Shown: piece by piece, positions 14,794-40,946 of the stretch
Numbering within the stretch: the stretch's first letter is position 1
Layout: every line of letters begins with the position of its first letter
IMG/VR virus record: IMGVR_UViG_3300020050_006168
Location: 1 to 64,000 of that record
Strand: one strand, 5' to 3'
From: a virus
Taxonomy: Duplodnaviria > Caudoviricetes
Length of the DNA stretch: 64,000 bases
The notes under the pieces: generated by a model
The model's input: only the letters and a program-made list of their open reading frames with translations
Database searches by the model: none
What the model was told of the DNA's origin: nothing
Program-made: the position numbers and the translations under genes

Positions 14794-15130
14794 ATTATGG
14801 GTTTACGGAACTCTTAAGAGCGGACATAGAAATCATGACTTACTTGATAATAGCACGTATTTAGGTGAATATCATGCACCTAAGGGATATAAATTAGTGG
14901 TCAGTGGGTTACCCTATCTACTAGAAGATCACGAGGGTGAGGGTGCTTATGGTGAGTTGTATGAAGTTAAACCTAGAACTCTTATTGAATGTGATAAATT
15001 CGAGGCACACCCTGAGTGGTACAAACGAACTCTTATTACAGTAATTAATGTTGAAACTAAAATGAAAGAAAAGGCGTATGCTTACATTTACCAAGGAAAA
15101 GTCGATGGAACTGTCACACGAAGATATTAG
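14741..15130 (+). CDS. gamma-glutamylcyclotransferase (AIG2/GGCT family); true start probably near 14783
   Basis: 'LWVYGTLKSG..NH', 'GELYEV', 'CDKFEAHPEWYKR', 'AYAYIY'. Confidence 0.8.
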   Translation: MLLIQKHLEQNGKNLTYKLWVYGTLKSGHRNHDLLDNSTYLGEYHAPKGYKLVVSGLPYLLEDHEGEGAYGELYEVKPRTLIECDKFEAHPEWYKRTLITVINVETKMKEKAYAYIYQGKVDGTVTRRY

Positions 15131-15914
15131 TGCTTATGTTCAATATGTAGATAACTTTGGGATGATTGCTCAAAGTAAAGAAAGTGGAGCCGATGGTGGA
15201 GATAGCGCCCACCGCTTTGGATTAATTATTGTATGTCTTAAATTACTTGGGTATAAAACATGGATTGATGGTACACCACTAGATGAGTATTATCGAAAAG
15301 CAATGTTTGAATATGAAGTAAGTAAAGATGTATATACAAGACATCCTGACAAAACAAAATGGTATAGCAATCCTTTAAATATGAGTAGAGATCAGTTATC
15401 TAGATTGATTCAAGCTATGATTGTTATGCATGATACAGATAGAATTAAAGGCGTTGCTAGTAAAATGCTAGCAAGATATGGATTTAATCAAAATATTTAT
15501 CCAAATCATGCAAGTCCAGGAGATGCTACATATAAAAAGAAAGTGGCTGATATCATTACACCGGGGCAATTGAGAGATATCATTAGTGGTGTTACAAATA
15601 ATTGGTTTGATAATTATATTTTAATGCCAGCTTTAGATCTATTTAAATTTGCCGATGTTTATTTTGCTAAAAAAGATGATGACAGGGCTAAACGTAAAGG
15701 TAAACGAACTGACTATTATGTAATGTTAGTTACTGATATTGCTGTAGCCAGAGCAACCAGAGATAATTTTGTACTAAGACTAGTGGCTAAAGCATTAGCT
15801 AAATCTGATTATAAGTCTAGCATTACTTGGATCTTTGAACCAAAGTGGTCAGATCCACCGATTGATAAACTATTATTAAAATTAGCAGAACGGTATATTG
15901 AAAATGTCGGTTAA
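15105..15914 (+). CDS. hypothetical helical protein
   Basis: Long ORF with enzyme-like motifs 'DGGDSAHR', 'YTRHP', 'NMSRDQ'; family not recognised. Confidence 0.55.
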
Positions 15915-16530
15915 GTTAATTCATTGTACTCCAGGCGCAGAGCAACTAATCGCATATTGCGCTAGGGTTAGCAGCAACAACCCCGACAATCCTGAATATG
16001 AAAAACTATTACGATATTTAATTAAACATAAACATTGGTCACCATTTGAAATGGCTAACATGTGTGTTGAGATTGAAACAACTAGGGGTATTAGTCCTCA
16101 AATCTTACGACATAGAAGCTTTTCATTTCAAGAATTTAGTTTGCGATACGCAGAAGCTACTGAATTTATTGAGTACGAAGCTCGTAATCAAGATGTAAAG
16201 AACCGACAGAATAGCCTAGATACAGTGAGTGATGAGGATAAAAAATGGTTTATGGATGCTCAAGAACTTATTAATATGGAAGCCAGGGATCTTTACAATG
16301 ATGCAATTAGACGTGGCATTGCAAAAGAATGTGCTAGAAATTTACTACCAATGAGCACAAAAACTAAGTTATACATGAATGGAAGTTTACGTTCTTGGTT
16401 ACATTACATTGATATTAGAACAGATATTGCTACACAAAAAGAGCATAGAGATATTGCATTGGCTTGTAAAGATATATTTACTGAACAATTTCCTATTATT
16501 TCAAAGGCTGCATGGAATGAAATCATTTAA
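15904..16530 (+). CDS. thyX: FAD-dependent thymidylate synthase
   Basis: 'HKHWSPFEM', signature '[17 protein letters not shown]', 'CARNLLP', 'QKEHR'. Confidence 0.95.
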
Positions 16531-17874: not shown

Positions 17875-19401
17875 TGATGATCAACGCAAAACAAGCTAAA
17901 GAGGGAACTAAGATAGAGCGTTACATGAAGGAACGTTGTATGGAGATTGAACAATCCATTCTTCTTAGCATGGATCTTGGTTTATCCTATACACGAATTA
18001 ACAGTTCTCTACCTAAATCAATTCAGGATATGCTTGTTGAACTTGGCTATACAATTCTAGAACAAGAAGCTTATGGCACTAAAATTTATATCATAACTTG
18101 GGCAGATGCTAAAGAGGTGATGAAATGCAATTAAAAGATATTGCTACTGGTGAACTATATACTATTATTGAAGGAAAGATCTTGACAAAAGAAGAAGTAT
18201 TGAAGTATGATACTACAGCATCGTTTATTACGGCGGTGTCTGGTGATGTTGAGATTGGTGTAGTATTCGGCTACACTAAAGACGGCGACCACAGCCCTAA
18301 CAATAAATTTGAGGTAGTAAGTGAGTAATGGTTTAACTAAGTGGGAAGTAGTAATTCCTTTTTTTAATTATGATGGGGCTGTTGTTCCTCCCGGTACAAT
18401 AGTTTATGCATTAAGTGGAGAACCAAATACAGTCGGTCAAATTGAAATTGTTTATAAGATTGATGGGTACATATATGCAGCAAGGCCTCGTATTGAATAT
18501 CTTAAATTACATGAAGAATATAAAACAAATTTTAAACGACCTAAAGGAGTTCTAAATGACAAACGAACAAGTAACCGTAGCAATCTCAACATTAAATGAT
18601 CCAGGTACAGCAATGCTTATTGCAACAAGCCTAGTAAAAACTGCAGATCCTAAACAAATCAATGACTTTCTTGTTGCTGTAATTAAACGATCAGCAGAAG
18701 GTCATCATCAGTCTAGGGAGATTGCAGGGGCGGCTTTGATCCTATTAAACGGATTAAGCGATGAGTAAGCGAACCGGAGCCATTTCTATTGTTATGTTCT
18801 TATTGCTTGCTGTAGGCTTTGATAAGAGCTATAAATATATGGCACAACAAGGTTGTGAAGTTGGTGTATTAGCTTCTGTAGCACAAATGCGACCAGATCT
18901 TTATATGAAACTTGATGACATGGGTGCTGTTGATAACTTCGTTAATACATATTGTAAAGATGTGTTGAGGTTTGAATAATGTTTTTTTTATTATTTGCGG
19001 TTGTGGTAGCTGCATCAGTGTTTCCACCACAGCCTCCTTGCAATAAAGATTGCAGTGTTATATTAATCCCAAAGGAGAACCAACATGGCCCTCTTGATCG
19101 AATCCCTTAAGATCGCAGCAATAACAACCTTATTCCTAGCTACCATGTTTGGGCTGGTAGTATTTCATATAGTTGCCACCATTTTTTCCTTTACATTGTA
19201 ATACGATTGTGTTAGATTGTATTTGTGAAAAATTACAAGAAACCTAAATTCATTTTAAAAGATACTAAAAATAATAAATTATTAGAAGCTAAAGTTAAAG
19301 AAAGTTTAACCATTAGATTAAATAGATTGCTTAATTTAATTACTATAGATGAACTTACTGTAGGCCAAGCTGAAACAATTTTAAGAAACGGGGACAACTG
19401 A
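17871..19401 (+). other. cluster of ~8 small hypothetical CDS, several hydrophobic
   Basis: ORF track plus short ORFs read by eye (starts ~18979, ~19085, ~19225), all coupled up to the lon ATG. Confidence 0.5.
18182..18211 (+). promoter_or_regulatory. possible sigma70-type promoter
   Basis: TTGACA-18 bp-TATGAT. Confidence 0.45.
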
Positions 19402-21776
19402 TGTTAACGCTACCTGTAATTCCTTTACGTGACCTTATTGTATTTCCTACAACAATGGTTCCCTTGTACGTAGGTAGAGATAAGAGCGTTCAGGCCCTAC
19501 AACACGCAATGGGTGAAAAAACTCAAATTCTTCTTCTTACGCAAAAGATCGCTAAAGATCAAGATCCAACTGCTGAGTCTTTAAATACAATTGGTACTGT
19601 TGTTGAAATTGTTCAAAGTATTAATTTTCCAGACATGACTATGAAAGTTATTGTTCAAGGTATGTTTACCGCTAGGGTAAAACGTTTTAAACAAAACGAC
19701 CGATTCTTAGAAGTTGAATGTGAACAGATTTTAAAAGAAGAACCTTCTGATATTGAAATCCGTGCTGGTATGAAATCTGTGTCAGAGACAATTGAAGAGT
19801 TAGCCAGATATGACAAAAAGATTACACCAGAATTACTAGCACAAGTGAATGCCGCCACTGATTGGCAAGATCTTGTTTACATTGTTGCAGCAAATCTGAA
19901 CATTAAACTTGAAGCTAAGCAAGAAATTCTAGAAATTAATTCAGGTAAAGACATATTTGATAAACTATTATCCGTTATTCTTGGTGAACTTGAAGTCATT
20001 AAAGTAGAAAAAAAGATCCAAACTAGAATTAAAAAATCAGTTGAGCGATCACAAAAAGAATATTATTTAAATGAACAGCTTGAGGCAATTCAAAAAGAAC
20101 TTGGCGGTAAGGACGATCTTGGGCAAGAATTAGACGAATTGTTAGAAAAAGCTAAGCATAAAAAACTTTCTACTGAGGCTTTGGCTAAAGTGACTAAAGA
20201 GATTAAAAAACTCAAGCTCATGTCACCAATGTCAGCAGAGTCTACTGTTGTTAGAAATTACGTAGAGACTTTGTTATCACTTCCTTGGGAAGATTACTCT
20301 GACGAACAACGTGATATTACAATTGCTGAAGAAATTCTTAATCGCGACCACTTTGGTCTAGAGAAAGTAAAAGAACGCATCCTAGAACAACTAGCTGTGC
20401 TACAATTAAACGATAAAGCTAAGGGTGCTATTGTTTGTTTATCGGGACCTCCGGGTGTTGGTAAGACTTCTTTGGCTAAATCAATTGCTGAGGCTCAGAA
20501 TCGTCCATTTGTTCGCATTAGTTTGGGTGGAGTTAAGGACGAATCAGAGATTCGCGGCCACAGACGAACTTATGTGGGTGCAATGCCTGGAAAAATTATT
20601 CAGGCGTTTAAAAAAGCTGACAAAGGTAACCCACTAATCCTTCTTGATGAAATTGATAAGATGTCATCAGACTATAAGGGAGATCCAGCGAGTGCGATGT
20701 TAGAAGTTCTTGACCCAGAACAAAACTCTACGTTTCAAGATCATTACATTGATATTGAATATGATTTGTCTAAGGTTTTATTCTTTGCAACAGCAAATTA
20801 TATCCAGAACATTCCTAAACCATTGTTAGATCGCATGGAAATTATCAAGCTTGACGGCTATACACCAAAAGAAAAATTTGAGATTGCTAAAAAGTATTTA
20901 ATTCCTAAAGAAATTACCGCAACAGGTCTTGATAATATTAAAATTACATTCAAAGACGACGCTTTACAATTCTTAATTGAATCATATACACGAGAAGCTG
21001 GCGTAAGAAGCCTTGAGCGCACAATTGGTAAAGTATTTCGCAAGATTGCTAGAAAAGCTGTGTCATTAAAAACCGCTAAGATGAAGGGTTTTGTTATTGG
21101 CAAGAAAACTATTGAAGAAATGCTTGGTAACGAACGTATGACGCCAACACTTACGGCAAAAACCGATCAGATTGGTGTTGTAAACGGCATGGCTTGGACT
21201 GAATCTGGTGGGGACCTACTTCCTATTGAGGTTCTTATGATGCCAGGTAAGGGCAATATGCAAGTAACGGGCCAACTTGGTGAGGTTATGCAGGAATCTG
21301 CTAAGATTGCCATGAGCTACGTGCGAAGCCGCGCAAGCTTGTTTGGTATTGATAAAGGTTTTTTTGAAAAAAATGACCTAGCTGCTCACGTTCCAGATGG
21401 CTCTACACCAAAAGATGGACCAAGTGCTGGTATTGCATTGACAACCGCTATTGTTTCTGCTATAACTAAGATTCCGGTTAAGCGCCTAGTGGCAATGACC
21501 GGGGAAGTAAGCTTGACTGGTAAGGTAATGCCTATCGGTGGCTTAAAAGAAAAGGTTATGGCAGCACACAGAGCCGGGGTTAAGATGATTATCTGTCCTA
21601 AAGAAAATGAAAAAGATATTAAAGATATTCCTCAGGATGTTGTTAGTGATCTTGAATTCTTTTTTGCAGAACATGTTGATGAGGTTCTTGTCCGAGCACT
21701 GGCGATTAAGTCACCGAAGGATTTGTTCAAATTAAATAACGATAAAGAATATTCTATTAGGAGTCGATATGAGTAA
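19401..21776 (+). CDS. lon: ATP-dependent Lon protease (LonA, full length)
   Basis: N-domain 'LPVIPLRDLIVFP', Walker A 'GPPGVGKTS', Walker B 'LLDEIDK', 'RGHRRTYVGAMPG', catalytic Ser 'PKDGPSAG' and Lys 'IGGLKEK'. Confidence 0.97.
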   Translation: MLTLPVIPLRDLIVFPTTMVPLYVGRDKSVQALQHAMGEKTQILLLTQKIAKDQDPTAESLNTIGTVVEIVQSINFPDMTMKVIVQGMFTARVKRFKQNDRFLEVECEQILKEEPSDIEIRAGMKSVSETIEELARYDKKITPELLAQVNAATDWQDLVYIVAANLNIKLEAKQEILEINSGKDIFDKLLSVILGELEVIKVEKKIQTRIKKSVERSQKEYYLNEQLEAIQKELGGKDDLGQELDELLEKAKHKKLSTEALAKVTKEIKKLKLMSPMSAESTVVRNYVETLLSLPWEDYSDEQRDITIAEEILNRDHFGLEKVKERILEQLAVLQLNDKAKGAIVCLSGPPGVGKTSLAKSIAEAQNRPFVRISLGGVKDESEIRGHRRTYVGAMPGKIIQAFKKADKGNPLILLDEIDKMSSDYKGDPASAMLEVLDPEQNSTFQDHYIDIEYDLSKVLFFATANYIQNIPKPLLDRMEIIKLDGYTPKEKFEIAKKYLIPKEITATGLDNIKITFKDDALQFLIESYTREAGVRSLERTIGKVFRKIARKAVSLKTAKMKGFVIGKKTIEEMLGNERMTPTLTAKTDQIGVVNGMAWTESGGDLLPIEVLMMPGKGNMQVTGQLGEVMQESAKIAMSYVRSRASLFGIDKGFFEKNDLAAHVPDGSTPKDGPSAGIALTTAIVSAITKIPVKRLVAMTGEVSLTGKVMPIGGLKEKVMAAHRAGVKMIICPKENEKDIKDIPQDVVSDLEFFFAEHVDEVLVRALAIKSPKDLFKLNNDKEYSIRSRYE

Positions 21777-28734: not shown

Positions 28735-29284
28735 ATGAAATTAATAAGAGCAATGTGTTTAGCTATTAGTATTATATTTATATTAACTGTTACAACTATT
28801 TTAGTTGTGGGATCAATTACGCTTTTACTATATGCCGTAAAGTCGCTAGCATTATTGATTGTTTTAGTAACATTTACCATACTTACTATTTTTTGTTATG
28901 GTTGTATAGAAAACTAAGAGGGATTATGAAACTAACACAGATTCGTATCAACCAGCTAATGGATAACCTAAGATACTATTATCTCTTTGAGATGTGGGAA
29001 TCTTATGACTTGACATTCGAAAAGCTTAGAGTGAATAATGTATTCCTAAACCACACAGGAAAGGATAATAACCAATGCCCAATTATAAACTATTCTTCCA
29101 GCACACTAAAGAAACAGAGCTAGTAATCTATGAGCATGATCTGCTAGAACACATACAGGAAGCTCGCTTATCTGTCATGGATAAGTTTGTTGACTTCTAT
29201 ATTGAACCTTATATTGAATACGTTGGACCTGATGGATACTATCTAGACAGTGAAGGAATCTTTCATTACATGGAGGTTAAGTAA
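28735..29284 (+). other. three small hypothetical CDS (one very hydrophobic)
   Basis: ORF track 28735-28917, ~28926-29123, 29075-29284. Confidence 0.45.
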
Positions 29285-30606
29285 TGGAAATCTCAAAGCT
29301 TATTGGTTGTGTCAATGTGCCTGTTAGATTCGGACCTACTGTATCAGATCATTACGGAGCAATAGATCATTTAAAGAATGGCGTTGCAATCCTAATGTCA
29401 GTACAAAAATACTATAGTCATAATCAAGTACAGTTAATGATATTTCATAACAACGAAGTTAGAAATATTATTGTCAAAGGTGACACTAAGATAGCCAGGC
29501 TTAGAAAGAAGTCTGATCTTGAATCAATCTTAAGATCATACTCACGTCAGACCAAGACTAATTATAGTAAACGTCTTGACAAAAAGTCTATGAGACTTGG
29601 CTCAGACCCTGAGTTATTCATTGAACATAACGGACGTGTGGTCCCTTCATTTGAATACCTACCTTCTAAGAAGACACCTATTGAAAGTGAATACAATCAG
29701 TTATACTGGGATGGATACCAAGCTGAGTTCACTACACGAGCAGACACCTGTCTGTCATGGGTAGTAGACTCTGTACAAAATGGATTAAAACAAACCCTTA
29801 GACAAGCACGCATGGTTAATCCTGACTATAAGATCTCAACACAAACTACAATGGACATACCATTTGCTAGATTAGAAACTGACAAAGACGAGCATGTAAG
29901 CTTCGGCTGTATGCCTAGTCTCAATGCCTATGGCATGAAGGGTATCACTGGTGATGGTAGGAATGTAGGGTTTAGATCAGCCGGTGGGCATATACACTTT
30001 GGTCTTGTTGACGGGATGTTTATACAAGAGAAGAAGCTATCTGTGGAGCAAGCAGACCGCATTGTTAAGGCGCTAGACGCTGTCCTAGGGGTAGCATCAG
30101 TGTCTTTGTTTGCGGGCTATGACAACCCTGTTAGACGCACCATGTATGGGTTAGCTGGTGAGTATAGGTTGCCGCCTCATGGTCTAGAGTATAGAGTTCT
30201 TAGTAATGCTTGGATGTTTCATCCCCTCACTATGAACATTGTATTTGAACTTGCTAGGAACGCAGCTATCTTTGGGTTCAATGGATTCATTGGTAACTGG
30301 GAGCATGATGAAGCCGAGACCATTAAGATCATTAACACCTGTGATGTAGAGGGTGCAAGAAAAGTATTAGAGAAGAACAAAGATGTTCTTAAAGGTATCA
30401 TCCAGGCACGCACACTATCTACTGAATCAGACATGGTAGTTGATATGATTATGAAAGGTGTCGATGCTTACTTACCTAACTTCAAAGATGTTGAATCTAA
30501 CTGGCATCTTAGTTCGGGTAAGTGGGTAGGACATTGTGAAGCTGAAGGTTGTAACATCTCTAACTTCTATGCTATGATTAAGAAACAACAAGCCAAGGTA
30601 GGATAG
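29284..30606 (+). CDS. phiEco32-like COOH-NH2 ligase type 2 (glutamine synthetase/GCS fold)
   Basis: 'RLGSDPELF', 'DGYQAEF', 'FGCMPSLNAY', 'RSAGGHIHFG', 'RRTMYGLAGEYR...HGLEYRVLSN.W'. Confidence 0.85.
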   Translation: MEISKLIGCVNVPVRFGPTVSDHYGAIDHLKNGVAILMSVQKYYSHNQVQLMIFHNNEVRNIIVKGDTKIARLRKKSDLESILRSYSRQTKTNYSKRLDKKSMRLGSDPELFIEHNGRVVPSFEYLPSKKTPIESEYNQLYWDGYQAEFTTRADTCLSWVVDSVQNGLKQTLRQARMVNPDYKISTQTTMDIPFARLETDKDEHVSFGCMPSLNAYGMKGITGDGRNVGFRSAGGHIHFGLVDGMFIQEKKLSVEQADRIVKALDAVLGVASVSLFAGYDNPVRRTMYGLAGEYRLPPHGLEYRVLSNAWMFHPLTMNIVFELARNAAIFGFNGFIGNWEHDEAETIKIINTCDVEGARKVLEKNKDVLKGIIQARTLSTESDMVVDMIMKGVDAYLPNFKDVESNWHLSSGKWVGHCEAEGCNISNFYAMIKKQQAKVG

Positions 30607-30607
30607 T

Positions 30608-32787
30608 ATGATGTTGGCAGTTGGTCCTGTGTATTACTTTGAAACGCCTGATTATATCAAGGCTCACTTTGTAATTACAGAAATATTTTCACAGCCAGAA
30701 GAAACATTTGATCCAGAATTACCTTCAATGGCACATGAACCGATAGCAAAAATTAAAATAGTTGATGGCGGAAGTAAAAACCCTAATAAAAATTGGTGGG
30801 AAGTAGGAATGATACATCATCTAACAACCAAAGATTGTATTCAAGGTAAGGTAACAAGACTTATTAAAACAAATGTTAACCGAAACAAAACAACAATGAA
30901 ACAAAGGAGATAATATGTATACATTAATGGAAGCAATCGCATCAGGACGTAAGTTTAAACGAGCAGGATCTACTGGAGCCTATGGTATTCCAGCTACCTT
31001 TGGTCACGGTGATGTAGTCGCAACAGACTATGTGCTAGAACCTGCGGCTATTACGCTCTCAGCGGCTGACCTTGCCACGGCATGGGATGAAGTAGCAGAT
31101 GAGTTCACTAACGTAAAGCCATCAGCCAGCAGCCCGCTGTTTGCTAAGCTTGTTGCTGCGTTGTTTGAATAATCCGTTACAAGTAGGAGATACCTTTACC
31201 TGGGGTAGTGGCTGTGAGCACTATGTTGTAACTAGGATACTAGGTGATGGTTACTTTAAAGCTGCCATCTATTATTCCTACAGTACATTTCGTGAAGAAA
31301 TAACATTTAGTAAGTCATTTAATAATGACCACATGATTCTTCTTCAAGGATTAAGACCTGGTATCAGACCACCAAGTAAGAGCAATTATAAAGGGAGGAA
31401 GTATGCGCTTCGCATTGGCAGATGAACCAGTTGACTATCAGATTACAGTTCATTATAATAATTACATTGCTCACTACGGAGCCTACTTCCTAGATCATCT
31501 TGAGTATGTGAATACATACATGGCTAGAGAGTCTGTGTGTAAACAGTTCCCATTAATGCACGGGTTCATTATCACATACGGATATGATAAGCTTATTACA
31601 TTTCATTCTATGATCAGTGCATCTAAGGTAGTTGCTTCATGATACAAGTAAGATCATGGGACCAGATCAAAGCAGGAGATACATTAATCTATTATGATAA
31701 GACAGATGAAATGGCATTTGATCAAAGATACTATTATATAATCTTATCTGTATCAGATAACTATTACATACAGGAAGCTAGAAGATTTGATGGTATCTAT
31801 AAAGGTACGGCCAACACTAGAAGAAAAGAAGATATAGAAGAACGAATTAAAAACGGCCATGTGTTTTTTAAAGATAAGAGTAACAACAAGAGGAGTAAGT
31901 ATGGGTTTAAGCCGACGCCTCGTAGGAATGTTTAGGATATTAGATCCTGACGACAAGCTTGAACAGGTATACTATGGATGGATTGTAGTAGGTGATGGTG
32001 GTGACGTGTTCTATACATCACATGATGAACATCTTAGTCCTGATAAGTTTGTATCTCAATATGTATTAGAAGAACAATACAGTATGGATGTATATGATGC
32101 TGAAGAGGATGAGACAAGTGAACAGGAGTTTGACATTGAGGTTATGATCCTTAATCAGAACACAATGCATCTACATAACTTAAGTATTGAATCATGGAGA
32201 GAACTTAGATACGCTGGTGACTACGGACACCTTGAATGGTTAGAACAATTAGCTCTTAACAAAGTAAAAGAATTGCAACCTAAAGAAGATGAAGAGGATG
32301 GTGTATATGGGAACTAAAGTATTGGAAGAAGATAGCAAGACCGGCAGTTCACACATTGTGTCATTGAACTACGAGATTCCTAAGTATCAAATAGGAATGA
32401 TTGTTGGGTTCAATAATGTAGATCCTTCTCAACCTGATAAGATGATTGAGTCTGAGGTAACAGCTATTCAATCCTCAATAGATCTTGATAAGGAAGGTAA
32501 CATCGTAGAGAATCATGCGTATGAATTATCTAACGGTATGTTAATCCTTGAGGAAGATGTTGAGTATTACTTTCCTTTGGATGATGAAGATGAAGTATAA
32601 TATAGGTGATGTAATTAAATTTAAAAAAGATGGTTTTAGCATACAAGATCATTTTGAATTGATTGAGAAATACAGACTGGTAGATTTTGTAGGTAAAGTT
32701 ATACAGTCAGAGCTAGTACGTCCTAGAACCAATGTTCCAAAACAAAAGGCGCAGCTATCCCTATATATCCGTAAGATCAATACCTAA
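30608..32787 (+). other. run of ~8 small hypothetical early CDS, several with SH3/KOW-like 'xGD' starts
   Basis: ORF track; 'LQVGDTF', 'IKAGDTL', 'YQIGMIV', 'YNIGDVI'. Confidence 0.5.
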
Positions 32788-32963
32788 GCTAATGTTATAG
32801 GTATAGTGTAATCTCTCTATAGCCTTGAGAGATACTTGTTTCATTTTACTACAGAGCTACCCGCCGGATTCGCAATTGAACGGTAAAAGATAGGTGCCTC
32901 AAACTAGGTAACAAGTTACCGGACTCTAGCCAATACATTCCAATAGGTGGATATGAATACGTT

Positions 32964-33455
32964 TCATTTCTTCCCCGTATCCATCTCTATTAGACAGCCT
33001 CTAGAATCATCCCCCAGAACCATGCAGTTTTCAGGACCGCTTCCTATTTCAATCTGGGCTTTAGGTTTATAGATCTTTGCTGGTTTAAAGTATGGGCCTT
33101 TCATTCCACATACTTTGTCTAAACATCTTTGTAAGGATTTGTTATCATAAGCTTTAACTCTGAACACTTTGTATCCAGTGCTTCTATACTTCTTATCTTT
33201 CTTTATATCTTTTTTCTTTTGTGCTTCAGTATCATGTATACTACCATCAACTTCAATAATATACTTATACTTTCTGTTGATAACATCAGGAATGTAGCAA
33301 GCAAATGGAACATTAAACTCATCGTCTATTGTTCTATATGGAAGGAAGTGAGACATGAACCAACGCTCAGATCTAGGTATGTTCTGTCTTATCTTAGCTG
33401 CGAATTGTTTTAGTTTTAATCGCTTTAATTTAGTTGACTCTCTAACCATTGTCAT
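32964..33455 (-). CDS. DUF559/Vsr-like PD-(D/E)XK endonuclease, inverted relative to neighbours
   Basis: 'RSERWF', 'YIPDV', 'IIEVDGSIHD', 'QKKKD..KD..Y...GYKVFRV'; RBS GGGGAG before ATG 33455. Confidence 0.75.
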   Translation of the reverse strand: MTMVRESTKLKRLKLKQFAAKIRQNIPRSERWFMSHFLPYRTIDDEFNVPFACYIPDVINRKYKYIIEVDGSIHDTEAQKKKDIKKDKKYRSTGYKVFRVKAYDNKSLQRCLDKVCGMKGPYFKPAKIYKPKAQIEIGSGPENCMVLGDDSRGCLIEMDTGKK

Positions 33456-33467
33456 CTCCCCGTAGTA

Positions 33468-33496
33468 TCTATAACACAACCCTTATGTAATGTCAA
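33468..33496 (-). promoter_or_regulatory. sigma70-type promoter for the inverted endonuclease
   Basis: Minus strand TTGACA-17 bp-TATAGA with TG extension. Confidence 0.55.
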
Positions 33497-34274
33497 GGAT
33501 AATTATGCAAGAACACTTAGCTAAGATTATGATATTAAATAAAGAAGATCAAACAAAGCTCATGCCTTTTTTTAGTATTGGTTATGTGGATGCTGTTGGT
33601 ATACCAATCATCCTTAATAGAATTGAAGCACAAAAATATTATTTTTATTCTTTACGCGTACAGAACAATCATGTAACCTTTAATGAAGTGTATTTAAAGA
33701 ATACACCAGAGGTTACTTTCTTATTACAAGAAATATTTAATAGATCAACACAAACTAAATCTAACTTTAAGTGGGGCAGGAATGTACATAAATAGAATGG
33801 CTTGTGTTCCAACAGAACTATTATACACTATGAATCTTATACAGAAACAAGAAAGCTATAGTGAAAAAATGATTCTTCATGTTAAGGAACGATGCTCTGA
33901 ATATGTTATTATTTGTTGGGGCTATACAATAAATAAGTTTAATAACGATGTTCATGTATTAGATATTCCAGTGACAGAAGTGTTGCTCAATAAACTATTA
34001 CATACTTATGAAATGAAGGCAGCCCATGATACTAAAACCAATTTTAAATTTAAAAGGAGTAGCCATGTCTGATAGAACTAGAGTTTTTGTTTACAAACGA
34101 AGCGATCAATTCTCAGTTGATGTAGTAGTCAACGAGCTAGCAGCATCTGTTGTGTTCAGTAATATTGTTACACCAGAGAACTCTCCGGCTGCTGTTAAAG
34201 AATTGTTTCTTGAGGAAGCAGAGAAGGCTGTGACTAAACAACTAGAGGGAGACAACTATGCTCAAGGGTCTTGA
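33490..34274 (+). other. three small hypothetical CDS; the first two share a C-terminal TK(S/T)NFK motif
   Basis: 'QTKSNFKWGRNVHK*' and 'DTKTNFKFKRSSHV*'. Confidence 0.55.
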
Positions 34275-34710
34275 GTTAGAAAAGGAAAAAGAATATCCGT
34301 TAGATGCAAAGCCTGATGGCACGGTTATTCTACCTGTAAACCTTCAAGGTATCATGGAGTTTGGTTCTGCTTATCGTAGATTCAAATGGTTGTATCCTGA
34401 AACGTATAAGAAGTATGTGGCTGATTGTATTGAGGGTGTTGTATTTCCTGGCAGTGTTCGTATGTATAAAGAGAAAGGCCAGAACATTATCTTATTATAC
34501 TATAAGCTATATGAAGTGGGTGACATGAAACAATTTGAAACACCAAGACTTGACACTCAGTTGTTAACTTGTATTCATAATTTGTTTCAGCTTGACATAC
34601 CAGGAAACAAAGTGTATGCTCCACCTATCAGCTATGAGTTAACTATTCAAACCATCATCAAACAATTAGAAACACACAAAGATTTTAAATGGATTGTGTT
34701 GGGAGATTAA
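34258..34710 (+). CDS. divergent macrodomain (Poa1p/DarG-like)
   Basis: 'LDA...VILPVNLQGIMEFGSAYRRFKWLYPETYKKYVADC...V.PG' follows the LDA..vn.VN..G.Mg.G.A..FK..(F/Y)Pe..k.Y...C pattern. Confidence 0.55.
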   Translation: MLKGLELEKEKEYPLDAKPDGTVILPVNLQGIMEFGSAYRRFKWLYPETYKKYVADCIEGVVFPGSVRMYKEKGQNIILLYYKLYEVGDMKQFETPRLDTQLLTCIHNLFQLDIPGNKVYAPPISYELTIQTIIKQLETHKDFKWIVLGD

Positions 34711-34711
34711 T

Positions 34712-35197
34712 ATGAAGTTAGTTATTGAAAACATTAAACAGTTTGGTGAACACAATAAAAATATTGTGAACAAACTTAAAGAATATATTGAACTAAGATT
34801 TAAGAATACTAATATTGTTTGCACTGAAATCATTGGTATGAATGTAGATCTTGAAGGACAAGAAGATACTCAACGCATACTGGTCGTTAAGGGTTTTGAT
34901 AAAGAGAATAAGTTTCTTAAATCATCTAAGACTAATATGATTAAACTTAAAGAAGGAGACAGTCGTATTGCTAAGTTTGGTAAGGCAACATTAGATAGTC
35001 ACCGACTAACAGAGAAACAGTATAACGAATTACTTAGAATATTTAATGAACACTTAGATAGCATTGGTATTGAATGTGATATATATTTACAAGAGTTCCA
35101 AGATGATCCTATGTCTATGACATACATCAGAAAAGATAATCAAGTTGTAATTAAAGAATGGTTGAAGCCAAAATCATTTACTGAGGAGAACGTATGA
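34712..35197 (+). CDS. hypothetical protein
   Basis: ORF track; coupled to the amidoligase gene. Confidence 0.55.
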   Translation: MKLVIENIKQFGEHNKNIVNKLKEYIELRFKNTNIVCTEIIGMNVDLEGQEDTQRILVVKGFDKENKFLKSSKTNMIKLKEGDSRIAKFGKATLDSHRLTEKQYNELLRIFNEHLDSIGIECDIYLQEFQDDPMSMTYIRKDNQVVIKEWLKPKSFTEENV

Positions 35198-36471
35198 TTA
35201 ATATTAAGCACGAGATTGCTAGTAAAAATAAAGACGATAGCTTCTCAATCCATAGAAACATTGAGATCTTTAGTAAGCTTAATAAGATTAAAGCTTTAAG
35301 GAATAGAGATCGTATTGCTATTGAACATATGAAAGATGACATCAAGGGAATGCGAGATGAATTAAAATACAATCTGTATTCAATTAATCTATTAACATTT
35401 AAATCAAAGAACTTTATCTTTGAGTATCTGTTAGATGCAGATAGCTTAGATAGATTTAGACCACGCAAAGTAGATGAGAAGCCAATTGATTATTTAAAAG
35501 CTAGGTATAAAGAATTGATTCAGGCTAAGTCTGAACATCTTAAACAGATTAAAGAATACAGAGCTAAGACAAAACGATTAGACGAACAGAAGAAACAAAC
35601 GCTCGGCTTTAATTATAGCATGACTGGTGGTGTGTTTAATAAACCAGGACAAGTCATTGCGCTACAGTCCGTAGAGAATCAGCTTAGTCGTATTGGCAAA
35701 GCCAAGGCTCCTAACAAAGAAAGCAAGAACAAGTATGTGGGTATTGAACTTGAGTTAGTTGCTAAGGTTAATCGTAATAAACTCAATGAGTTATTATGTA
35801 AAGCTTTCCTAGCTGGTTATGTTTATGTTAAACATGATGGTTCAATTACTATTGAGAATGATGGTGAGTATCCACATGAGATTACTGTTCTATGTAAAGA
35901 ACAAGATGTTTCTAGTGTAGTCAATAGGTTGTGTGCTGTTCTTAATAGCAAAGAAGTCGGGGCTTATGTAAACAATAGTTGTGGTCTTCATGTTCACATT
36001 GATTGTCGCAATAGAAAACCTAATGATGTTTACAATAATGTAACAAGATGTTTACCCCTTCTTAAAAAGATGGTACCGCAGAATCGAATCAACTCGCAAC
36101 ATGCCACTAGATATTGTAAGATGAATCAAACTTCTTCATGGGATGATGCACAGAACAATGATAGATATATGGCAGTCAATGTTCAATCGTATAGAAATCT
36201 TAAGACGATTGAGATTCGTATGCACAGTGGTACAACTAACGCAGCTAAGATAATTAACTGGTGCAGCATCCTATGCGGCGCAGCTAATCATCCTACATTA
36301 TTAGACAAAGATATCTCAACTGCTTATGAGTATACAGATGTCATTGGATGTAATGGTAAGTTGACTGGGTATATGTTGAAACGAATTGATTTGTTCACAG
36401 GTAAATTGTCTACGGCAATTGACACAAGAACAGATCATTTCTTTTATGACAATGTTGAAACAGCAGTATAA
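35194..36471 (+). CDS. putative amidoligase (Amidoligase_2-type COOH-NH2 ligase) with long N-terminal coiled region
   Basis: 'VGIELEL', 'KHDGSI', 'HEIT', 'NSCGLHVHID', 'RYMAVN', 'TIEIRMHSGT'. Confidence 0.85.
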   Translation: MINIKHEIASKNKDDSFSIHRNIEIFSKLNKIKALRNRDRIAIEHMKDDIKGMRDELKYNLYSINLLTFKSKNFIFEYLLDADSLDRFRPRKVDEKPIDYLKARYKELIQAKSEHLKQIKEYRAKTKRLDEQKKQTLGFNYSMTGGVFNKPGQVIALQSVENQLSRIGKAKAPNKESKNKYVGIELELVAKVNRNKLNELLCKAFLAGYVYVKHDGSITIENDGEYPHEITVLCKEQDVSSVVNRLCAVLNSKEVGAYVNNSCGLHVHIDCRNRKPNDVYNNVTRCLPLLKKMVPQNRINSQHATRYCKMNQTSSWDDAQNNDRYMAVNVQSYRNLKTIEIRMHSGTTNAAKIINWCSILCGAANHPTLLDKDISTAYEYTDVIGCNGKLTGYMLKRIDLFTGKLSTAIDTRTDHFFYDNVETAV

Positions 36472-36485
36472 GAAAGGCATAACCG

Positions 36486-37592
36486 ATGTGTAAAGTATTA
36501 ATGATTCCGGCTATCAAAGAAGATAAGAGAAAAGAAACTGAAGACTTCATCTATGTTATGTCACAGATCATGACCAAGAATAACAATGATGGTCTTGGTT
36601 ATGCAGCAATTGATGATGAAGGTAAGTTGTTTGGCGAGCGTTGGTTTGTAAACAACATGGCATTCAGAGACCCTAATGAATTTAAACGTACAGAGTTTCA
36701 AGCTCATCAGGATAGAGCTAGAAGTATTGTAGACAAATGGGGAGACGCTCTAAAGAAGATGCGCTTCGGTGCTTATGAACCGTTTGTGTTCACTGGTAAT
36801 AAGGAAGATGTATACAATAACTTTGGAGAAGATCCTAAGTTAAGTAGAGCGCGAGCTATTACTTTGCATACACGCTATGCTACTTGTGAAAAGAACCTGA
36901 CCAATGTTCATCCCTTTGTTGATCAAGACACCAGCGTTATTCATAACGGTGTGATTAGTAATCATAAAGAGTTTGATCTTAAGTTATCCACTTGTGATAG
37001 CGAGAGTATCCTTATCTCGTATCTTGATAACAATGTAAACAATGATCCGACTGGTGCATTTCATAATGAGAACGGTGTGAAAGAAATGGCCAATGCTTTA
37101 GATGGTTACTATGCAACGGGTATCTTTAGTAGAGATGTTGACGGCAATCGTATCCTTGATGTAGTCCAATGGAACAATCGTAACCTCAGTGTGTGTTACA
37201 TCTATGATCTTGAGACTTATGTTATTGCTACTTCAGATCATGATATCAAGGAAGCTTGTAAAGAACTTGGCTACCTACACGATGGCACCATTGATTTGAA
37301 TGAAGGGTTCTTAACTAGAATCAATCCTTTCAATGGCGAAGTAATGTTGCAGGTTAAGTTTGAAAAAGAAGTTAAGAAAGTAGAACATAAAACATACCCT
37401 GAATACAAACCATGGGAGCAATACTTTAAACAGAACGAAGAGAAAACTAAAGTGTTACCACATAGACATCACCAAAAAGTATCTAACATAGATCAAGCCA
37501 CAATGAATATGCTTAGACTTAAGCCAACAATTAAAGAATTAAATGAGAGAGCAGTAGAAGAATTTAAAATGGCATCAGGATATTGGGAGTAA
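36486..37592 (+). CDS. class II (Ntn) glutamine amidotransferase
   Basis: N-terminal nucleophile Cys2 'MCK', 'NNDGLG', 'HTRYAT', 'NVHPF', 'HNGVI', 'CDSE'. Confidence 0.9.
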   Translation: MCKVLMIPAIKEDKRKETEDFIYVMSQIMTKNNNDGLGYAAIDDEGKLFGERWFVNNMAFRDPNEFKRTEFQAHQDRARSIVDKWGDALKKMRFGAYEPFVFTGNKEDVYNNFGEDPKLSRARAITLHTRYATCEKNLTNVHPFVDQDTSVIHNGVISNHKEFDLKLSTCDSESILISYLDNNVNNDPTGAFHNENGVKEMANALDGYYATGIFSRDVDGNRILDVVQWNNRNLSVCYIYDLETYVIATSDHDIKEACKELGYLHDGTIDLNEGFLTRINPFNGEVMLQVKFEKEVKKVEHKTYPEYKPWEQYFKQNEEKTKVLPHRHHQKVSNIDQATMNMLRLKPTIKELNERAVEEFKMASGYWE

Positions 37593-37595
37593 ACA

Positions 37596-38390
37596 ATGCA
37601 CAAACTATTCATAGCTCCATACATCATGGGGTCTGAGTCAGCAAGGGATCTAGCAAGGTCCCTTTCTTGTTTCAGGATTGACGGTAGTAAGAAAGTATAT
37701 GATGCTCATATTATTAATTGGGGCAGGAGTGACCTGCATATTAATGGTAGTAGAAATAGAATCATTAACTCACCACAAGCGGTGGGACTTGCTGCTAATA
37801 AGATTGAAACATTCAAGACACTGACTAGAGATGGTGTGCCTTGTGTTGACTGGACACTTGATAAAGAACAAGCAAGACAGTGGTTAGATGATGGACACAT
37901 TGTCTATGCTCGCACTAACGTAAATGGTTCTAGTGGTGATGGCATTGTTATTGTAGGTCAAGATGATTTACATTTCCCATCAGCTAGGTTATATACAAAA
38001 GGATTTAATAAGACACATGAGTATAGAGTTCACGTTGCCTTTGGTAGTGTGATTGACTATAGTAAGAAGCGTAAGCGTAATGACATTGCAGTTAACCCAT
38101 ACATTAAGAACTTTGATAGTGGTTGGGTGTTCTGTCGTGATGGTGTGGCCTTACCTGAATCAGTATCAGATACTTGTATTGCGGCAATTGATTCCCTCGG
38201 TCTTGACTTCGGTGCGCTTGATGTGTTGTATAAAGAACGAGACAACCAAGTTAAAGTGTTGGAAGTAAACACAGCACCAGGTATTGAAGGCACCACACTT
38301 ACTAAGTACACAGAAGCATTTAAGATTCATTGCCCACTAACTATTAACAGGAGACAATATGGACAAGATAGATTTAGTTTACGCAGATAA
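37596..38390 (+). CDS. ATP-grasp peptide ligase (RimK/phiEco32-like)
   Basis: 'AANKIETF', 'GSSGDGI', 'EYRVHV', 'DFGALDV', 'VLEVNTAPG'. Confidence 0.88.
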   Translation: MHKLFIAPYIMGSESARDLARSLSCFRIDGSKKVYDAHIINWGRSDLHINGSRNRIINSPQAVGLAANKIETFKTLTRDGVPCVDWTLDKEQARQWLDDGHIVYARTNVNGSSGDGIVIVGQDDLHFPSARLYTKGFNKTHEYRVHVAFGSVIDYSKKRKRNDIAVNPYIKNFDSGWVFCRDGVALPESVSDTCIAAIDSLGLDFGALDVLYKERDNQVKVLEVNTAPGIEGTTLTKYTEAFKIHCPLTINRRQYGQDRFSLRR

Positions 38391-39072
38391 AGTTCCTATG
38401 TCTACTGACAATCATATAGGAATTGAGATTGAGTTTGTATCTAAGATGGACCCTGATACAATCTCCGACATGATTGTTGATCATGATTTGTATATGAACT
38501 GTACATTAAAAGAAGATGGTAGCATTGATGAGTACTTACCTTCATGCGGTTATAGTCCATGCGACTGCGGCGATCCTGAATGTACAGAGGTGATAAGCGA
38601 TACTGATTGTGTCGGACATGAGCTAACTGTTTTGTGTACAGAAAAAGATCTAAGCTTTATTTTAAATAAAGTAAATAACTTACTTATCGATTGTGGTGCT
38701 GAGGTAAACAAGTCATGCGGACTTCATGTTCACATTGATTGCCGGTCCAGATCCTATAAGCAAGTCGTATCTAACTTCTTATCTAAACAAAAAGAAATGA
38801 GAAAGATGGTACCTGATGAAAGAAAAGTTAGCGGCTACTGCAAACCATTAACAAAGAAAGATCTGAAGATTAAAGATCAGACCTTGCTGTCTAGGTATAA
38901 AGATATTAATATCAGATCATATCCTAAACTTAAAACAATTGAGATTAGATTACATGAAGCAACGGTAAACACTAAAGACATTATGTCATGGTGTAAATAT
39001 CTTATTGGTGTAGCTGATAAGAAGAGAGTGAGTAAACAATATGTCAACACCCGAATTAAAAAATGTTCTTAA
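38359..39072 (+). CDS. second putative amidoligase (paralogue of 35194-36471) with Cys-rich insert
   Basis: 'IGIEIEF', 'KEDGSI', 'HELT', 'KSCGLHVHID', 'RYKDIN', 'TIEIRLH'; insert 'CGYSPCDCGDPEC'. Confidence 0.85.
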   Translation: MDKIDLVYADKVPMSTDNHIGIEIEFVSKMDPDTISDMIVDHDLYMNCTLKEDGSIDEYLPSCGYSPCDCGDPECTEVISDTDCVGHELTVLCTEKDLSFILNKVNNLLIDCGAEVNKSCGLHVHIDCRSRSYKQVVSNFLSKQKEMRKMVPDERKVSGYCKPLTKKDLKIKDQTLLSRYKDINIRSYPKLKTIEIRLHEATVNTKDIMSWCKYLIGVADKKRVSKQYVNTRIKKCS

Positions 39073-39262
39073 TTACATTAGAGAGAAAGGCAGTTGCACT
39101 GAGACAGAGATATGGAATCAGTTTGTTAAGTCAGACGCAATTGAAGAACGAACAAGAGTAATGAAACAATTAATAACACTAGAACAAAAAGGATTAATCA
39201 ATTATGGAACAGATCAAAAAGGCTTTTCTTTTATTAACTATCACAACATTTCTTATCAGTAG
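39041..39262 (+). CDS. small winged-helix-like protein
   Basis: 'VLNYIREKGSCTETEI...QLITLEQKGLI' pattern. Confidence 0.4.
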   Translation: MSTPELKNVLNYIREKGSCTETEIWNQFVKSDAIEERTRVMKQLITLEQKGLINYGTDQKGFSFINYHNISYQ

Positions 39263-39680
39263 TGGATGTGCTAGACACACAGATGCAACAACTTCACAAG
39301 AGGAAGCCGACACAATGGCAAGCCTTGCTGCTAGAGTGATGACATTAGAATCACAGATCGGTACACCAACTAGCGGACTTCAAGCTATGATTAATAGTAA
39401 TACTGTACAGCTATTAGAATTACAGAGCAATCATAACGTAACAAGTTTGATTGATCCCTGCGGTGATGGACCAGGTTATGATGAGATCTTCCTTAGAACA
39501 TCTACTGGTAAAATCATTGCTAGCTTTAGTGATAGCAGCTCGGGAACAAACACTAGGTTCGCTGAGTTAACTGCTGGCGGTCCTTATCAAACAACAGATG
39601 GTACTCATTGTACATTCAGTGTTGTTATGGGTAGTGGTGGACTAGAAGTTGTATCAACACCAGCAACCGTGGAGTACTAA
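39204..39680 (+). CDS. putative lipoprotein
   Basis: Signal with 'ISSGC'; C-terminal 'LIDPCGDGPGYDEIFLR...YQTTDG..C.F' domain. Confidence 0.55.
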   Translation: MEQIKKAFLLLTITTFLISSGCARHTDATTSQEEADTMASLAARVMTLESQIGTPTSGLQAMINSNTVQLLELQSNHNVTSLIDPCGDGPGYDEIFLRTSTGKIIASFSDSSSGTNTRFAELTAGGPYQTTDGTHCTFSVVMGSGGLEVVSTPATVEY

Positions 39681-40082: not shown

Positions 40083-40223
40083 TATGTTAACAAAAATTTT
40101 TATCGGTGCAATTCTTGGTTGGGTTGCATATAGTATTAGTAATGACTGGGTATATTCATTGGCTTGTTGGTGGGGCTACGTTGTAGTATCATCAACACTA
40201 GATCATATGTATGTTGGTGCCAA

Positions 40224-40946
40224 ATGATTAGATGGATTATAGGTGCAGGACTTATTGTCTTTGCTGTTATAAAGGCAGATGCTCAAGAACTTAGAGTATT
40301 AATGCTTGACTCAGGTGTACCAGAAAAGCTAGCAACCTATTCAACTATTACAGGATCAGAGCTGTCTCCTTATGTGTTTGCTAAACATAAACATTCAAGC
40401 GCTGTCTATCAAATGATTATCTCAGGAGAAGGGCAGACCCCATCCTGTTTAAACATGAGAGTAGACTGGTGTTCATGGTATACTAAATCTTTAGCTGACG
40501 GTAATAGATATATAAACTGTTTGAGCAAAGCTGTTGATGGTAACTACGATATTGTTAATCTATCATTGGTTGCTAACTATATGGACAGAAGAGAACGAGA
40601 TCTTATAAGTAAGCTAAGAGAACGTAGCATTGTTGTAGCTGCTGCTGGCAATGAAGGATGTAGAGCTGGCTTATATAAATGCAACGCTTATCCTGCCGCC
40701 TATAGCAGAGGCCCAGCCGATAGTGTTATTGCTGTAGCTGCTACTGATATAACAGGTAAGGTGTTTGACTTCTCCAATAGAGATGATACCGGATTAACTG
40801 TTGACTTCTTAGGAGAAGGATATTATTATATGAACGGTGGATACAGTCACATGGTTGGTACTAGCATGGCTGCGGCAATGTATAGTAACAAACTAATTAA
40901 AGAAATGTGTCCTTCTAGAAAAGGAGCATGGGTTGGGAAAGAATAA
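40224..40946 (+). CDS. subtilisin-like (S8) serine peptidase with signal peptide/anchor
   Basis: Asp 'MLDSG', His 'KHSSAV', oxyanion 'VAAAGNEG', Ser 'GTSMAA'; hydrophobic N-terminus 'MIRWIIGAGLIVFAVIKADA'. Confidence 0.8.
   Translation: MIRWIIGAGLIVFAVIKADAQELRVLMLDSGVPEKLATYSTITGSELSPYVFAKHKHSSAVYQMIISGEGQTPSCLNMRVDWCSWYTKSLADGNRYINCLSKAVDGNYDIVNLSLVANYMDRRERDLISKLRERSIVVAAAGNEGCRAGLYKCNAYPAAYSRGPADSVIAVAATDITGKVFDFSNRDDTGLTVDFLGEGYYYMNGGYSHMVGTSMAAAMYSNKLIKEMCPSRKGAWVGKE

Follow-up and report, generated by a model that had tools for sequence, protein, structure and literature searches.

The 64,000-nucleotide stretch of DNA analyzed here (the window) is the opening part of the ~82-kb IMG/VR virus record IMGVR_UViG_3300020050_006168, and it carries a run of ligase genes at 35194-39072 that, judged by domains and motifs, appears to be the core of a lineage-specific variant of the phiEco32/LUZ24-type phage amidoligase ("gamma-glutamyl amide") cassette. 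The whole record is 81,975 bp long, with direct terminal repeats and a completeness rating of 100%. The core block is made of four contiguous genes, and two further enzymes of the cassette are encoded upstream:

14741-15130, plus strand: GGACT/AIG2-like gamma-glutamyl(amine) cyclotransferase (PF06094, 7.1e-20, 72.2 bits against 22.8)
29284-30606, plus strand: COOH-NH2 ligase type 2, 440 aa (PF14395, 4e-11, 43.1 bits against 25; phrog_3815, 2.6e-38)
35194-36471, plus strand: long Amidoligase_2, 425 aa (PF12224, 2e-14, 54.5 bits against a cut-off of 22; phrog_2443, 1.5e-18)
36486-37592, plus strand: stand-alone class II (N-terminal nucleophile, Ntn) glutamine amidotransferase-type enzyme, 368 aa (GATase_6, 7.7e-7, 29.6 bits against 27)
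37596-38390, plus strand: RimK-like ATP-grasp ligase, 264 aa (phrog_2599, 8.7e-66)
38359-39072, plus strand: short Amidoligase_2 paralogue, 237 aa, ligase core only (PF12224, 3e-15, 57.2 bits against 22)

The original prediction named these five enzymes and the distant cyclotransferase (as GGCT), and all were recovered by Pfam or PHROG. It also described the last four genes as contiguous, which holds: spacers of 14 and 3 nt part the first three, and the last two overlap by 32 nt. Genes throughout the block are close-set or overlapping, neither of the two terminator-like matches is intergenic in the block, and 55 sigma-70-like sites were counted, with shuffled sequence giving an expectation of 59. 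Degenerate catalytic residues, which the original prediction named as grounds for refutation, were not seen. Motif invariance for the amidoligases, the amidotransferase and the ATP-grasp enzyme was scored in alignments of 9-18 lineage homologues, and the core motifs of the COOH-NH2 ligase are kept in at least 95% of 61 sequences.

The long Amidoligase_2 begins with a basic helical extension of ~135 aa, followed by a conserved Gly-rich stretch and then a glutamine-synthetase (GS)-like ligase core. Across 10 homologues, the first 135 residues have a net charge of +5 to +17. The short paralogue is ~30% identical to the long form, and the GxExE, CGLHVHxDxRxR and ExRxH motifs are invariant in both. 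By sequence, no solved close relative of Amidoligase_2 was found. The short paralogue also has a Cys-rich insertion at residues ~60-75 (window 38500-38560), with four Cys in ~14 residues, which may be a small metal-binding knuckle; this region varies in length and sequence among relatives and is not conserved.

The amidotransferase-type enzyme begins Met-Cys, and the intact Cys2 already noted in the original prediction is invariant in 14 sequences, together with HTRxAT, HPF, IHNG and STCDSE. Its closest solved relatives are the N-terminal domains of GlmS and PurF, and the enzyme could act as an ammonia donor or as a gamma-glutamyl amidohydrolase. For the COOH-NH2 ligase, 1432 homologues were found, many on contigs of 82-90 kb, and the conserved core lies at residues ~105-345 behind a variable N-terminal 100 aa; no solved or characterized close relative of this enzyme was found. 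The GGACT match covers profile positions 2-106 of 120. An open reading frame (ORF) of 278 aa with no Pfam or PHROG match (15078-15914, plus strand) starts within the end of the GGACT gene and extends into the downstream thyX gene.

Searched against the PDB, the profile of the ATP-grasp enzyme matched RimK-type alpha-L-glutamate ligases at 1.2e-10 to 1.8e-9, and the alignment to 7qyr covers ~180 residues. The EYRxH, GLDFxAxD and ExNxxPG motifs are invariant across lineage homologues, as are residues E223, N225, D209 and R144, such that the Mg/ATP motifs of the RimK/MptN ligases (E-x-N, the upstream Asp and the Arg in EYRVH) are kept. Two differences stand out: an invariant Arg occupies the position where the ATP-binding Lys of 7qyr aligns, and the phage protein, at 264 aa, is shorter than RimK. 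Among NCBIfam models, the best match was MptN (1.3e-11, 44.1 bits against a cut-off of 350), with rimK_fam at 2.1e-10; the score against TIGR00768, the RimK family, was 40.4 bits, which is below the cut-off of 143.4. RimK/MptN-type ligases extend a protein, or the gamma-glutamyl tail of a cofactor, by attaching glutamate at its terminal alpha-carboxylate, and the phage enzyme may be predicted to do likewise.

A cassette of this type was reportedly predicted from genomes by Iyer, Abhiman, Burroughs and Aravind in 2009. Cassettes of this kind are known from phiEco32, LUZ24-PaP3, PA11, RIO-1 and CW02 (Hardies et al., PMC4819975). Using tblastn, we found four families common to the window and to the cassettes of PA11 and the phiEco32-like phage SU7, in keeping with the original assignment to a phiEco32-type gene set, and both window copies of Amidoligase_2 match the single amidoligase of PA11 or SU7. 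The ATP-grasp enzyme is 36-42% identical to the PA11, CW02 and phiM6 proteins. Among isolate phage records, 313 have a relative of the ATP-grasp enzyme and 304 a relative of the COOH-NH2 ligase, with near-identical host distributions. The window resembles the phiEco32-type cassette in its COOH-NH2 ligase type 2, Amidoligase_2, Ntn class II amidotransferase, RimK-like ATP-grasp and GGCT-type enzymes, and in the placement of these genes in an early or middle gene arm beside replication genes. It differs in that its components are not all in one co-directional block, with only the Amidoligase_2/amidotransferase/ATP-grasp core contiguous, in that Amidoligase_2 is duplicated as a long and a short form, in gene order, and in the addition of a macrodomain gene and a second accessory gene (families A1 and A2, below).

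Parts of the canonical cassette are also missing. A PF07722 search for a class-I (C26-type) amidotransferase gave no match anywhere in the genome, while control genomes matched, and no counterpart of PA11 gp003, gp006 or gp009 or of SU7 gp084 was detected in the source phage by tblastn or hhalign. Pfam searches of the accessory proteins of PA11 and SU7 themselves gave no matches, and hhalign comparison of A1 and A2 with PA11 gp003, PA11 gp006 and SU7 gp084 gave probabilities of at most 1%. The description of the set as expanded is thus apt only in part: there are four ligases, however, the class-I amidotransferase and the canonical accessory proteins went undetected.

A word-index search yielded 49 homologues of the long Amidoligase_2, many of the longer contigs measuring 57-87 kb, and 17 related loci from Logan, NCBI, JGI and IMG/VR were scored with purpose-built hidden Markov models (HMMs). 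A single-protein scan of IMG/VR found no relatives, whereas an alignment-based scan did. The order long Amidoligase_2, Ntn amidotransferase, ATP-grasp is common to all of these loci but L013, in which the ATP-grasp HMM did not score, and in most of them a short Amidoligase_2 follows the ATP-grasp gene. The conserved core is therefore Amidoligase_2, the Ntn amidotransferase-type enzyme and the RimK-like ATP-grasp enzyme, present in every sampled locus with an ATP-grasp match.

In a maximum-likelihood tree, which included only those canonical-cassette amidoligases that passed a filter of E < 1e-10, the lineage amidoligases form one clade (100/100) apart from the canonical ones, with separate groups inside it for the short forms (93/89) and for the long forms (83/77). 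Three short-form sequences (L010_13440, L008_1060 and L041_6502) fall outside both groups on long or unresolved branches. Since both forms group inside the lineage clade, the fourth ligase is an old duplication within the lineage; the four ligases of the original prediction are all there, however, the last was not a function added from elsewhere. In L008, a third and very divergent Amidoligase_2-like ORF (L008:1072-1695, 207 aa, on a long tree branch) takes the position held by the COOH-NH2 ligase in the window. In what appears to be a prophage of the Hymenobacter norwichensis chromosome (L096:7514-10780), a solo Amidoligase_2 of 327 aa, ~29% identical, immediately follows genes for a holin and a GH19 endolysin-like protein; several more genomes of Hymenobacter, Prevotella and Oscillibacter have such solo copies, in contexts that give no functional hint. 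Lastly, a 1762-bp contig binned as Candidatus Saccharibacteria (L094) matches the lineage HMMs for the amidoligase (2e-68) and the amidotransferase (4e-102). Most likely this is a piece of phage DNA wrongly assigned to a metagenome-assembled genome, and it gives no evidence on the host.

The COOH-NH2 ligase and GGACT behave differently from the core. In the window, they lie 4.6 kb and 20 kb upstream of the core block, respectively, and where the COOH-NH2 ligase is found near the block (the window, L012, L035, L041, L139 and L140) it is 1-5.5 kb upstream. We compared five near-complete genomes, G000 to G004, of which G000 is the window's own genome and G003 is 100% complete. Both genes are present in G000; in G001 and G002 GGACT is present and the COOH-NH2 ligase was not detected, and in G003 and G004 the COOH-NH2 ligase is present and GGACT was not detected. 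On this comparison, both enzymes are optional, unlinked members that are dispensable in sister genomes, and the idea of a single block of five or six genes does not survive, given that these two are physically separate from the core and each went undetected in some near-complete sisters. An arrangement expanded beyond the window's set is seen in the ~90-kb relative L013, where two tandem COOH-NH2 ligase paralogues (451 and 465 aa) share the segment L013:5105-11398 with GGACT, two unknown genes and RtcB. There GGACT lies 3 kb further upstream of the tandem ligases, and a third amidoligase copy is found at the locus end.

What might such a set make? Gamma-glutamyl pathways use a GS-like carboxylate-amine ligase, an ATP-grasp ligase, an Ntn-type amide-cleaving enzyme and a cyclotransferase, and the phage set recalls the same combination of folds as found in the glutathione/gamma-glutamyl cycle (GshA, GshB, gamma-glutamyl transpeptidase and GGCT), in PuuA/PuuD and in EgtA/EgtC. 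Because of this likeness, we favor, and consider probable, the combined reading that the genes are an amidoligase cassette and that the cassette carries out the stepwise, ATP-dependent assembly and editing of a short Glu/Gln-based amide. Going by what these enzyme families do, the two or three GS-fold ligases would use ATP to activate a carboxylate, likeliest the gamma-carboxylate of glutamate, for coupling to an amine acceptor, after which the RimK-like enzyme would add an amino acid, likeliest glutamate, to the terminal alpha-carboxylate. The Ntn enzyme would then either amidate a carboxylate with glutamine-derived ammonia or cleave a gamma-glutamyl amide, and GGACT, where present, would strip gamma-glutamyl groups from amines. 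The product would be a short Glu/Gln-based amide on a small-molecule or protein acceptor, made early in infection and serving host takeover or counter-defense. The domain identities, the homology to canonical cassettes, the invariant motifs, the conserved core order, the tight packing, the duplication within the lineage and the surrounding counter-defense or repair genes all support this proposal, as does the fact that the closest solved and curated relatives of the ATP-grasp enzyme, RimK and MptN, are alpha-L-glutamate ligases.

Several points weigh on the other side. All of the cassette chemistry is read from family membership, and the resemblance to the gamma-glutamyl pathways is one of logic only, as no phage protein is a detectable orthologue of their enzymes. 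Glutamate is an assumption as the substrate of Amidoligase_2 and of the COOH-NH2 ligase, since neither has a solved or characterized close relative, and the ATP-grasp scores lie far below the curated RimK-family cut-offs. The sequence does not separate the ammonia-donor role of the Ntn enzyme from the amidohydrolase role. A fixed multi-step pathway that needs all of its parts is unlikely, because the COOH-NH2 ligase and GGACT went undetected in some near-complete sisters. Finally, the region looks, by association, like an early host-takeover or counter-defense region because of its macrodomain, NAD-salvage, RtcB and SAM lyase neighbors in the window or in relatives, however, this context is only guilt by association.

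Our literature search found no paper naming a product for the cassette, which agrees with the original prediction, and the HIDEN-SEQ paper does not mention the cassette. Published readings of its purpose do exist. For Phage-ZRK32, a set of amidoligase, amidotransferase, "glutathione synthase" and gamma-glutamylcyclotransferase genes has been read as auxiliary metabolic genes of nitrogen metabolism (eLife 2024, PMC10945688), and by extension the window genes would boost host nitrogen, glutamate or glutathione metabolism. The evidence in that study is indirect, however, and in the window the enzymes are remote from host housekeeping enzymes, with no NCBIfam or PDB match above a curated cut-off; they are phage-specific families set among early takeover genes as opposed to copies of host genes. 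We hold this to be the least likely of the explanations and highly improbable.

Immediately upstream of the core, three more genes complete the tightly packed block:

34026-34274, plus strand: conserved 82-aa ORF that opens the block, with homologues at the same position in 8 lineage loci
34258-34710, plus strand: macrodomain of the DarG/TARG1/Poa1p type (family A1), 150 aa (AlphaFold2 predicted local distance difference test, pLDDT, 86.5)
34712-35197, plus strand: A2, 161 aa, alpha/beta ferredoxin-like, of no known family (AlphaFold2 pLDDT 80.3, moderate)

Judged by homology searches, A1 and A2 appear to be lineage-specific accessory genes that are new for the amidoligase cassette. The A2 stop codon overlaps the start codon of the long Amidoligase_2, and the two genes are thus predicted to be translationally coupled. 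An exhaustive profile search returned 121 cluster representatives of A2, all stand-alone and 55-169 aa long, most of them 130-160. In 14 of 14 A2-bearing loci, the gene lies directly upstream of an Amidoligase_2 of ~400-455 aa, and in three distant members (E 9e-17, 6e-13 and 2e-8) a gap of 2-9 nt separates it from an Amidoligase_2 of ~410 aa, while an A1-family gene closely precedes it. Neither canonical cassettes nor the other members of the lineage had a detectable A2. Its fold gave no confident match: the best Foldseek hit in the PDB had an E of 0.06 and the best in BFVD an E of 0.04, the ESM Atlas gave no usable match, and a VIA-align search reached a best Z of 5.9 with generic ferredoxin-like matches.

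The close bond between A2 and the long ligase is of most interest for the main rival explanation, in which the cassette modifies proteins. Here the RimK-like ATP-grasp enzyme and PafA-like GS-fold ligases would attach a glutamate or peptide tag to a host or phage protein, such as a ribosomal or defense protein, with A2 as adaptor or substrate and with GGACT and the Ntn enzyme editing or removing the tag. RimK, the closest characterized relative of the ATP-grasp enzyme, glutamylates a protein C-terminus, and for related ATP-grasp enzymes of phages Burroughs et al. suggested that the targets are proteins (PMC4431377). The ~135-aa basic extension of the long ligase could dock a macromolecule, and the small, coupled A2 would suit an adaptor or substrate. 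The phage also encodes a full Lon-like protease, which would be relevant if the ligases tag proteins:

19401-21776, plus strand: Lon-like protease ORF, 791 aa (phrog_15585 over near full length, 2e-294; weaker matches to AAA+ ATPase and ATP-dependent protease families)

The A2 family has no invariant acidic residue at its C-terminus, however, and the semi-conserved Ser-Phe-Pro-x-Glu-like tail is absent in two members. In addition, the RimK family includes small-molecule ligases, among them MptN, the best NCBIfam match, and A2 went undetected in canonical cassettes and in the rest of the lineage. We therefore regard protein tagging as unlikely, yet as an explanation to be taken seriously.

Downstream of the core are the following genes, the last two of which bear on a third explanation:

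39041-39262, plus strand: winged-helix-like protein, 73 aa (Penicillinase_R, 1.3e-3, below the cut-off)
39204-39680, plus strand: lipoprotein-like protein, 158 aa, with a hydrophobic N-terminus ending Ser-Gly-Cys (lipobox-like, by eye)
40164-40946, plus strand: S8 subtilase (PF00082, 1.3e-12), with a signal-peptide-like N-terminus by eye

The winged-helix-like gene overlaps the end of the short Amidoligase_2 gene and has a homologue at the same place in 4 other lineage loci. A partial homologue of the lipoprotein-like protein in L005 carries DUF7151, and at least 7 lineage loci keep the S8 gene, at a distance of 1-5 kb past the block. The original prediction saw exported proteases and lipoproteins beside the ligases; an S8 subtilase and a lipobox-like gene do lie there, 0.1-1.1 kb downstream, with their export features assigned by eye only. 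It also considered a link to the cell wall or surface receptors, under which the ligases and the amidotransferase would amidate or extend peptidoglycan stems or surface structures and so exclude superinfecting phages or predators. An ATP-dependent ligase paired with an amidotransferase does recall MurT/GatD, a known peptidoglycan amidation chemistry, by analogy. Possible cell-wall modification by the amidoligases of the 2009 prediction has also been suggested for phiEco32, as cited in PMC10580990. However, the conserved block lacks any Mur-ligase, flippase, transpeptidase or membrane protein, the ligases show no export signal by eye, and neither S8 nor lipoprotein genes adjoin the canonical PA11 and SU7 cassettes. 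In relatives, variable genes part the S8 gene from the block. The link rests on two nearby genes, nothing specific supports a cell-wall or surface target for the cassette, and we consider envelope modification very unlikely.

The other accessory gene, A1, is assigned with more confidence than A2. Its predicted structure matched the DarG macrodomain 5m31 by Foldseek against the PDB (E 2.1e-9, template modeling score 0.68), with 174 matches at E of 0.001 or below, the best of them to DarG, Poa1p and TARG1, and an ESM Atlas structure search matched Macro clusters. Independently of structure, the sequence profile found 5m31 at 3.3e-5; the NCBIfam model antitoxin_DarG scored 1.8e-4 and 20.9 bits, below its equivalog cut-off of 250. 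The protein is therefore a macrodomain of the DarG/TARG1 fold, and it carries the VN..G.M..G...FK..FP pattern. A1 differs from the known DarG, TARG1 and Poa1p proteins in being only ~20% identical to them and in an altered Gly-rich loop, and from DarG antitoxins in being set beside the ligase block as opposed to beside DarT; a search for DarT matched neither the genome nor the control genomes and so carries no weight. By motif, Lys83 is at the strand end expected for the catalytic Lys (K80 is essential in TaqDarG, PMC5179494), and a Lys is kept in 8 or 9 of the 14 family members. Trp145 is the sole residue invariant in all 14, and the Gly-rich loop is not conserved.

Outside its closest relatives, the A1 family is 15-27% identical to the window protein, and still A1 lies directly upstream of A2 in 12 of 14 A2-bearing loci. 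The exceptions in placement are L035, where it is 5 kb downstream, and L015, where it occurs without A2, and HMM scoring of the lineage loci did not detect A1 in L024, L007, L013 or L041. The macrodomain is thus less strictly bound to the block than A2. Neither HMM nor hhalign searches found an A1-like protein in canonical cassettes.

Genes for NAD metabolism are found near the block in some relatives. In L006 (NCBI GCA_034680565.1 contig), a nicotinamide adenine dinucleotide (NAD)-salvage set comprising DUF3307, an NMNAT-like CTP_transf_like gene, a Pribosyltran gene and NAMPT lies between the amidotransferase and ATP-grasp genes (L006:12486-15517). L009 has a similar set without the NMNAT-like gene, 6-9 kb upstream, and in L140 a phosphoribosyl pyrophosphate-synthetase-like gene follows the block. 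RtcB, S-adenosylmethionine (SAM) lyase, an SprT-like gene and GNAT are also found near the block in relatives. NAD-reconstitution pathways are an established phage counter-defense (PMC13464706). The idea that the cassette amidates NAD was considered and rejected, as NARP3 is a PnuC/NadR pair unrelated to the enzymes of the ligase block.

Two related proposals follow from the macrodomain. The first treats both the macrodomain and A2 as dedicated parts of the ligase machinery, whose substrate would bear ADP-ribose or a nucleotide; the block could, for instance, glutamylate, amidate or otherwise cap a target that has been ADP-ribosylated or an immune signal derived from NAD. If true, this would give the amidoligase cassette a concrete counter-defense role, and we think it quite unlikely. 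The second, which we place below both this proposal and an action on the envelope and regard as very improbable, is that the block and the macrodomain together have as their substrate a molecule derived from ADP-ribose or NAD, or else DNA or RNA that has been ADP-ribosylated or aminoacylated, as in extending a Mom-type adduct or neutralizing a defense signal. The retention of the macrodomain upstream of A2 and the ligase despite low family identity, the NAD-salvage genes inserted in L006 and the basic N-terminal extension of the long ligase are consistent with such an activity. A Mom-family domain (PF25680, 5.2e-36) also lies inside a 416-aa open frame of the source phage, beyond the window (G000 77600-78199), and fits an HNH-Mom fusion. 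However, across the five near-complete genomes, Mom is present in G000, present as two genes in G002, weak in G003 and not detected in G001 or G004; its presence is uncorrelated with the ligase block, and we rejected the co-occurrence as a lead to DNA modification. The macrodomain is separable from the block (L024, L035, L007, L013 and L041), the family conserves neither the putative catalytic Lys nor the Gly-rich loop, and canonical cassettes have no detectable A1-like protein. Stand-alone phage DarG-like antitoxins are, moreover, known as independent counter-defense genes (PMC11825919, PMC13309987).

The source phage is a member of an uncultured lineage with genomes of ~76-90 kb, and megablast found no near relatives of the region among isolate phages. 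Its family-B DNA polymerase is ~25-27% identical to Salinibacter and Nostoc phage polymerases. The ligase block sits within a co-directional plus-strand arm at ~10.9-58 kb that holds replication and nucleotide-metabolism genes, including ribonucleotide reductase, Erf, primase-helicase, the polymerase, the Lon-like protease and ThyX, and the minus strand carries the terminase and portal genes at the window's left end. The thymidylate synthase gene and one exception to the direction of the arm are as follows:

15898-16530, plus strand: ThyX (Thy1, 3.4e-45)
32964-33479, minus strand: DUF559 (Vsr-like endonuclease) gene (Pfam, 1.1e-10)

The DUF559 gene is the lone minus-strand gene in the plus-strand arm and may be a mobile or homing endonuclease. 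L008 has one in a similar place, and in L007 one lies on the minus strand ~8 kb upstream of the block. Neither Rfam at the gathering threshold nor ARAGORN found RNA genes in the window. Among metagenome runs, activated sludge, freshwater and digester samples each had a share of at most 0.24, no RNA run was among those listed, and no habitat was assigned.

The amidoligase cassette is among the most widespread phage enzyme sets lacking a known product, 17 years after it was predicted. Amidoligase_2, the Ntn amidotransferase and the ATP-grasp enzyme stay together, whereas the lineage can dispense with the COOH-NH2 ligase and with GGACT, and this narrows the minimal set to reconstitute. A2, which may be an adaptor or a substrate, and its macrodomain-fold neighbor offer new handles, as baits or ligand probes for the acceptor. 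If that acceptor is a component of host defense or translation, the cassette would represent a new class of phage takeover chemistry.

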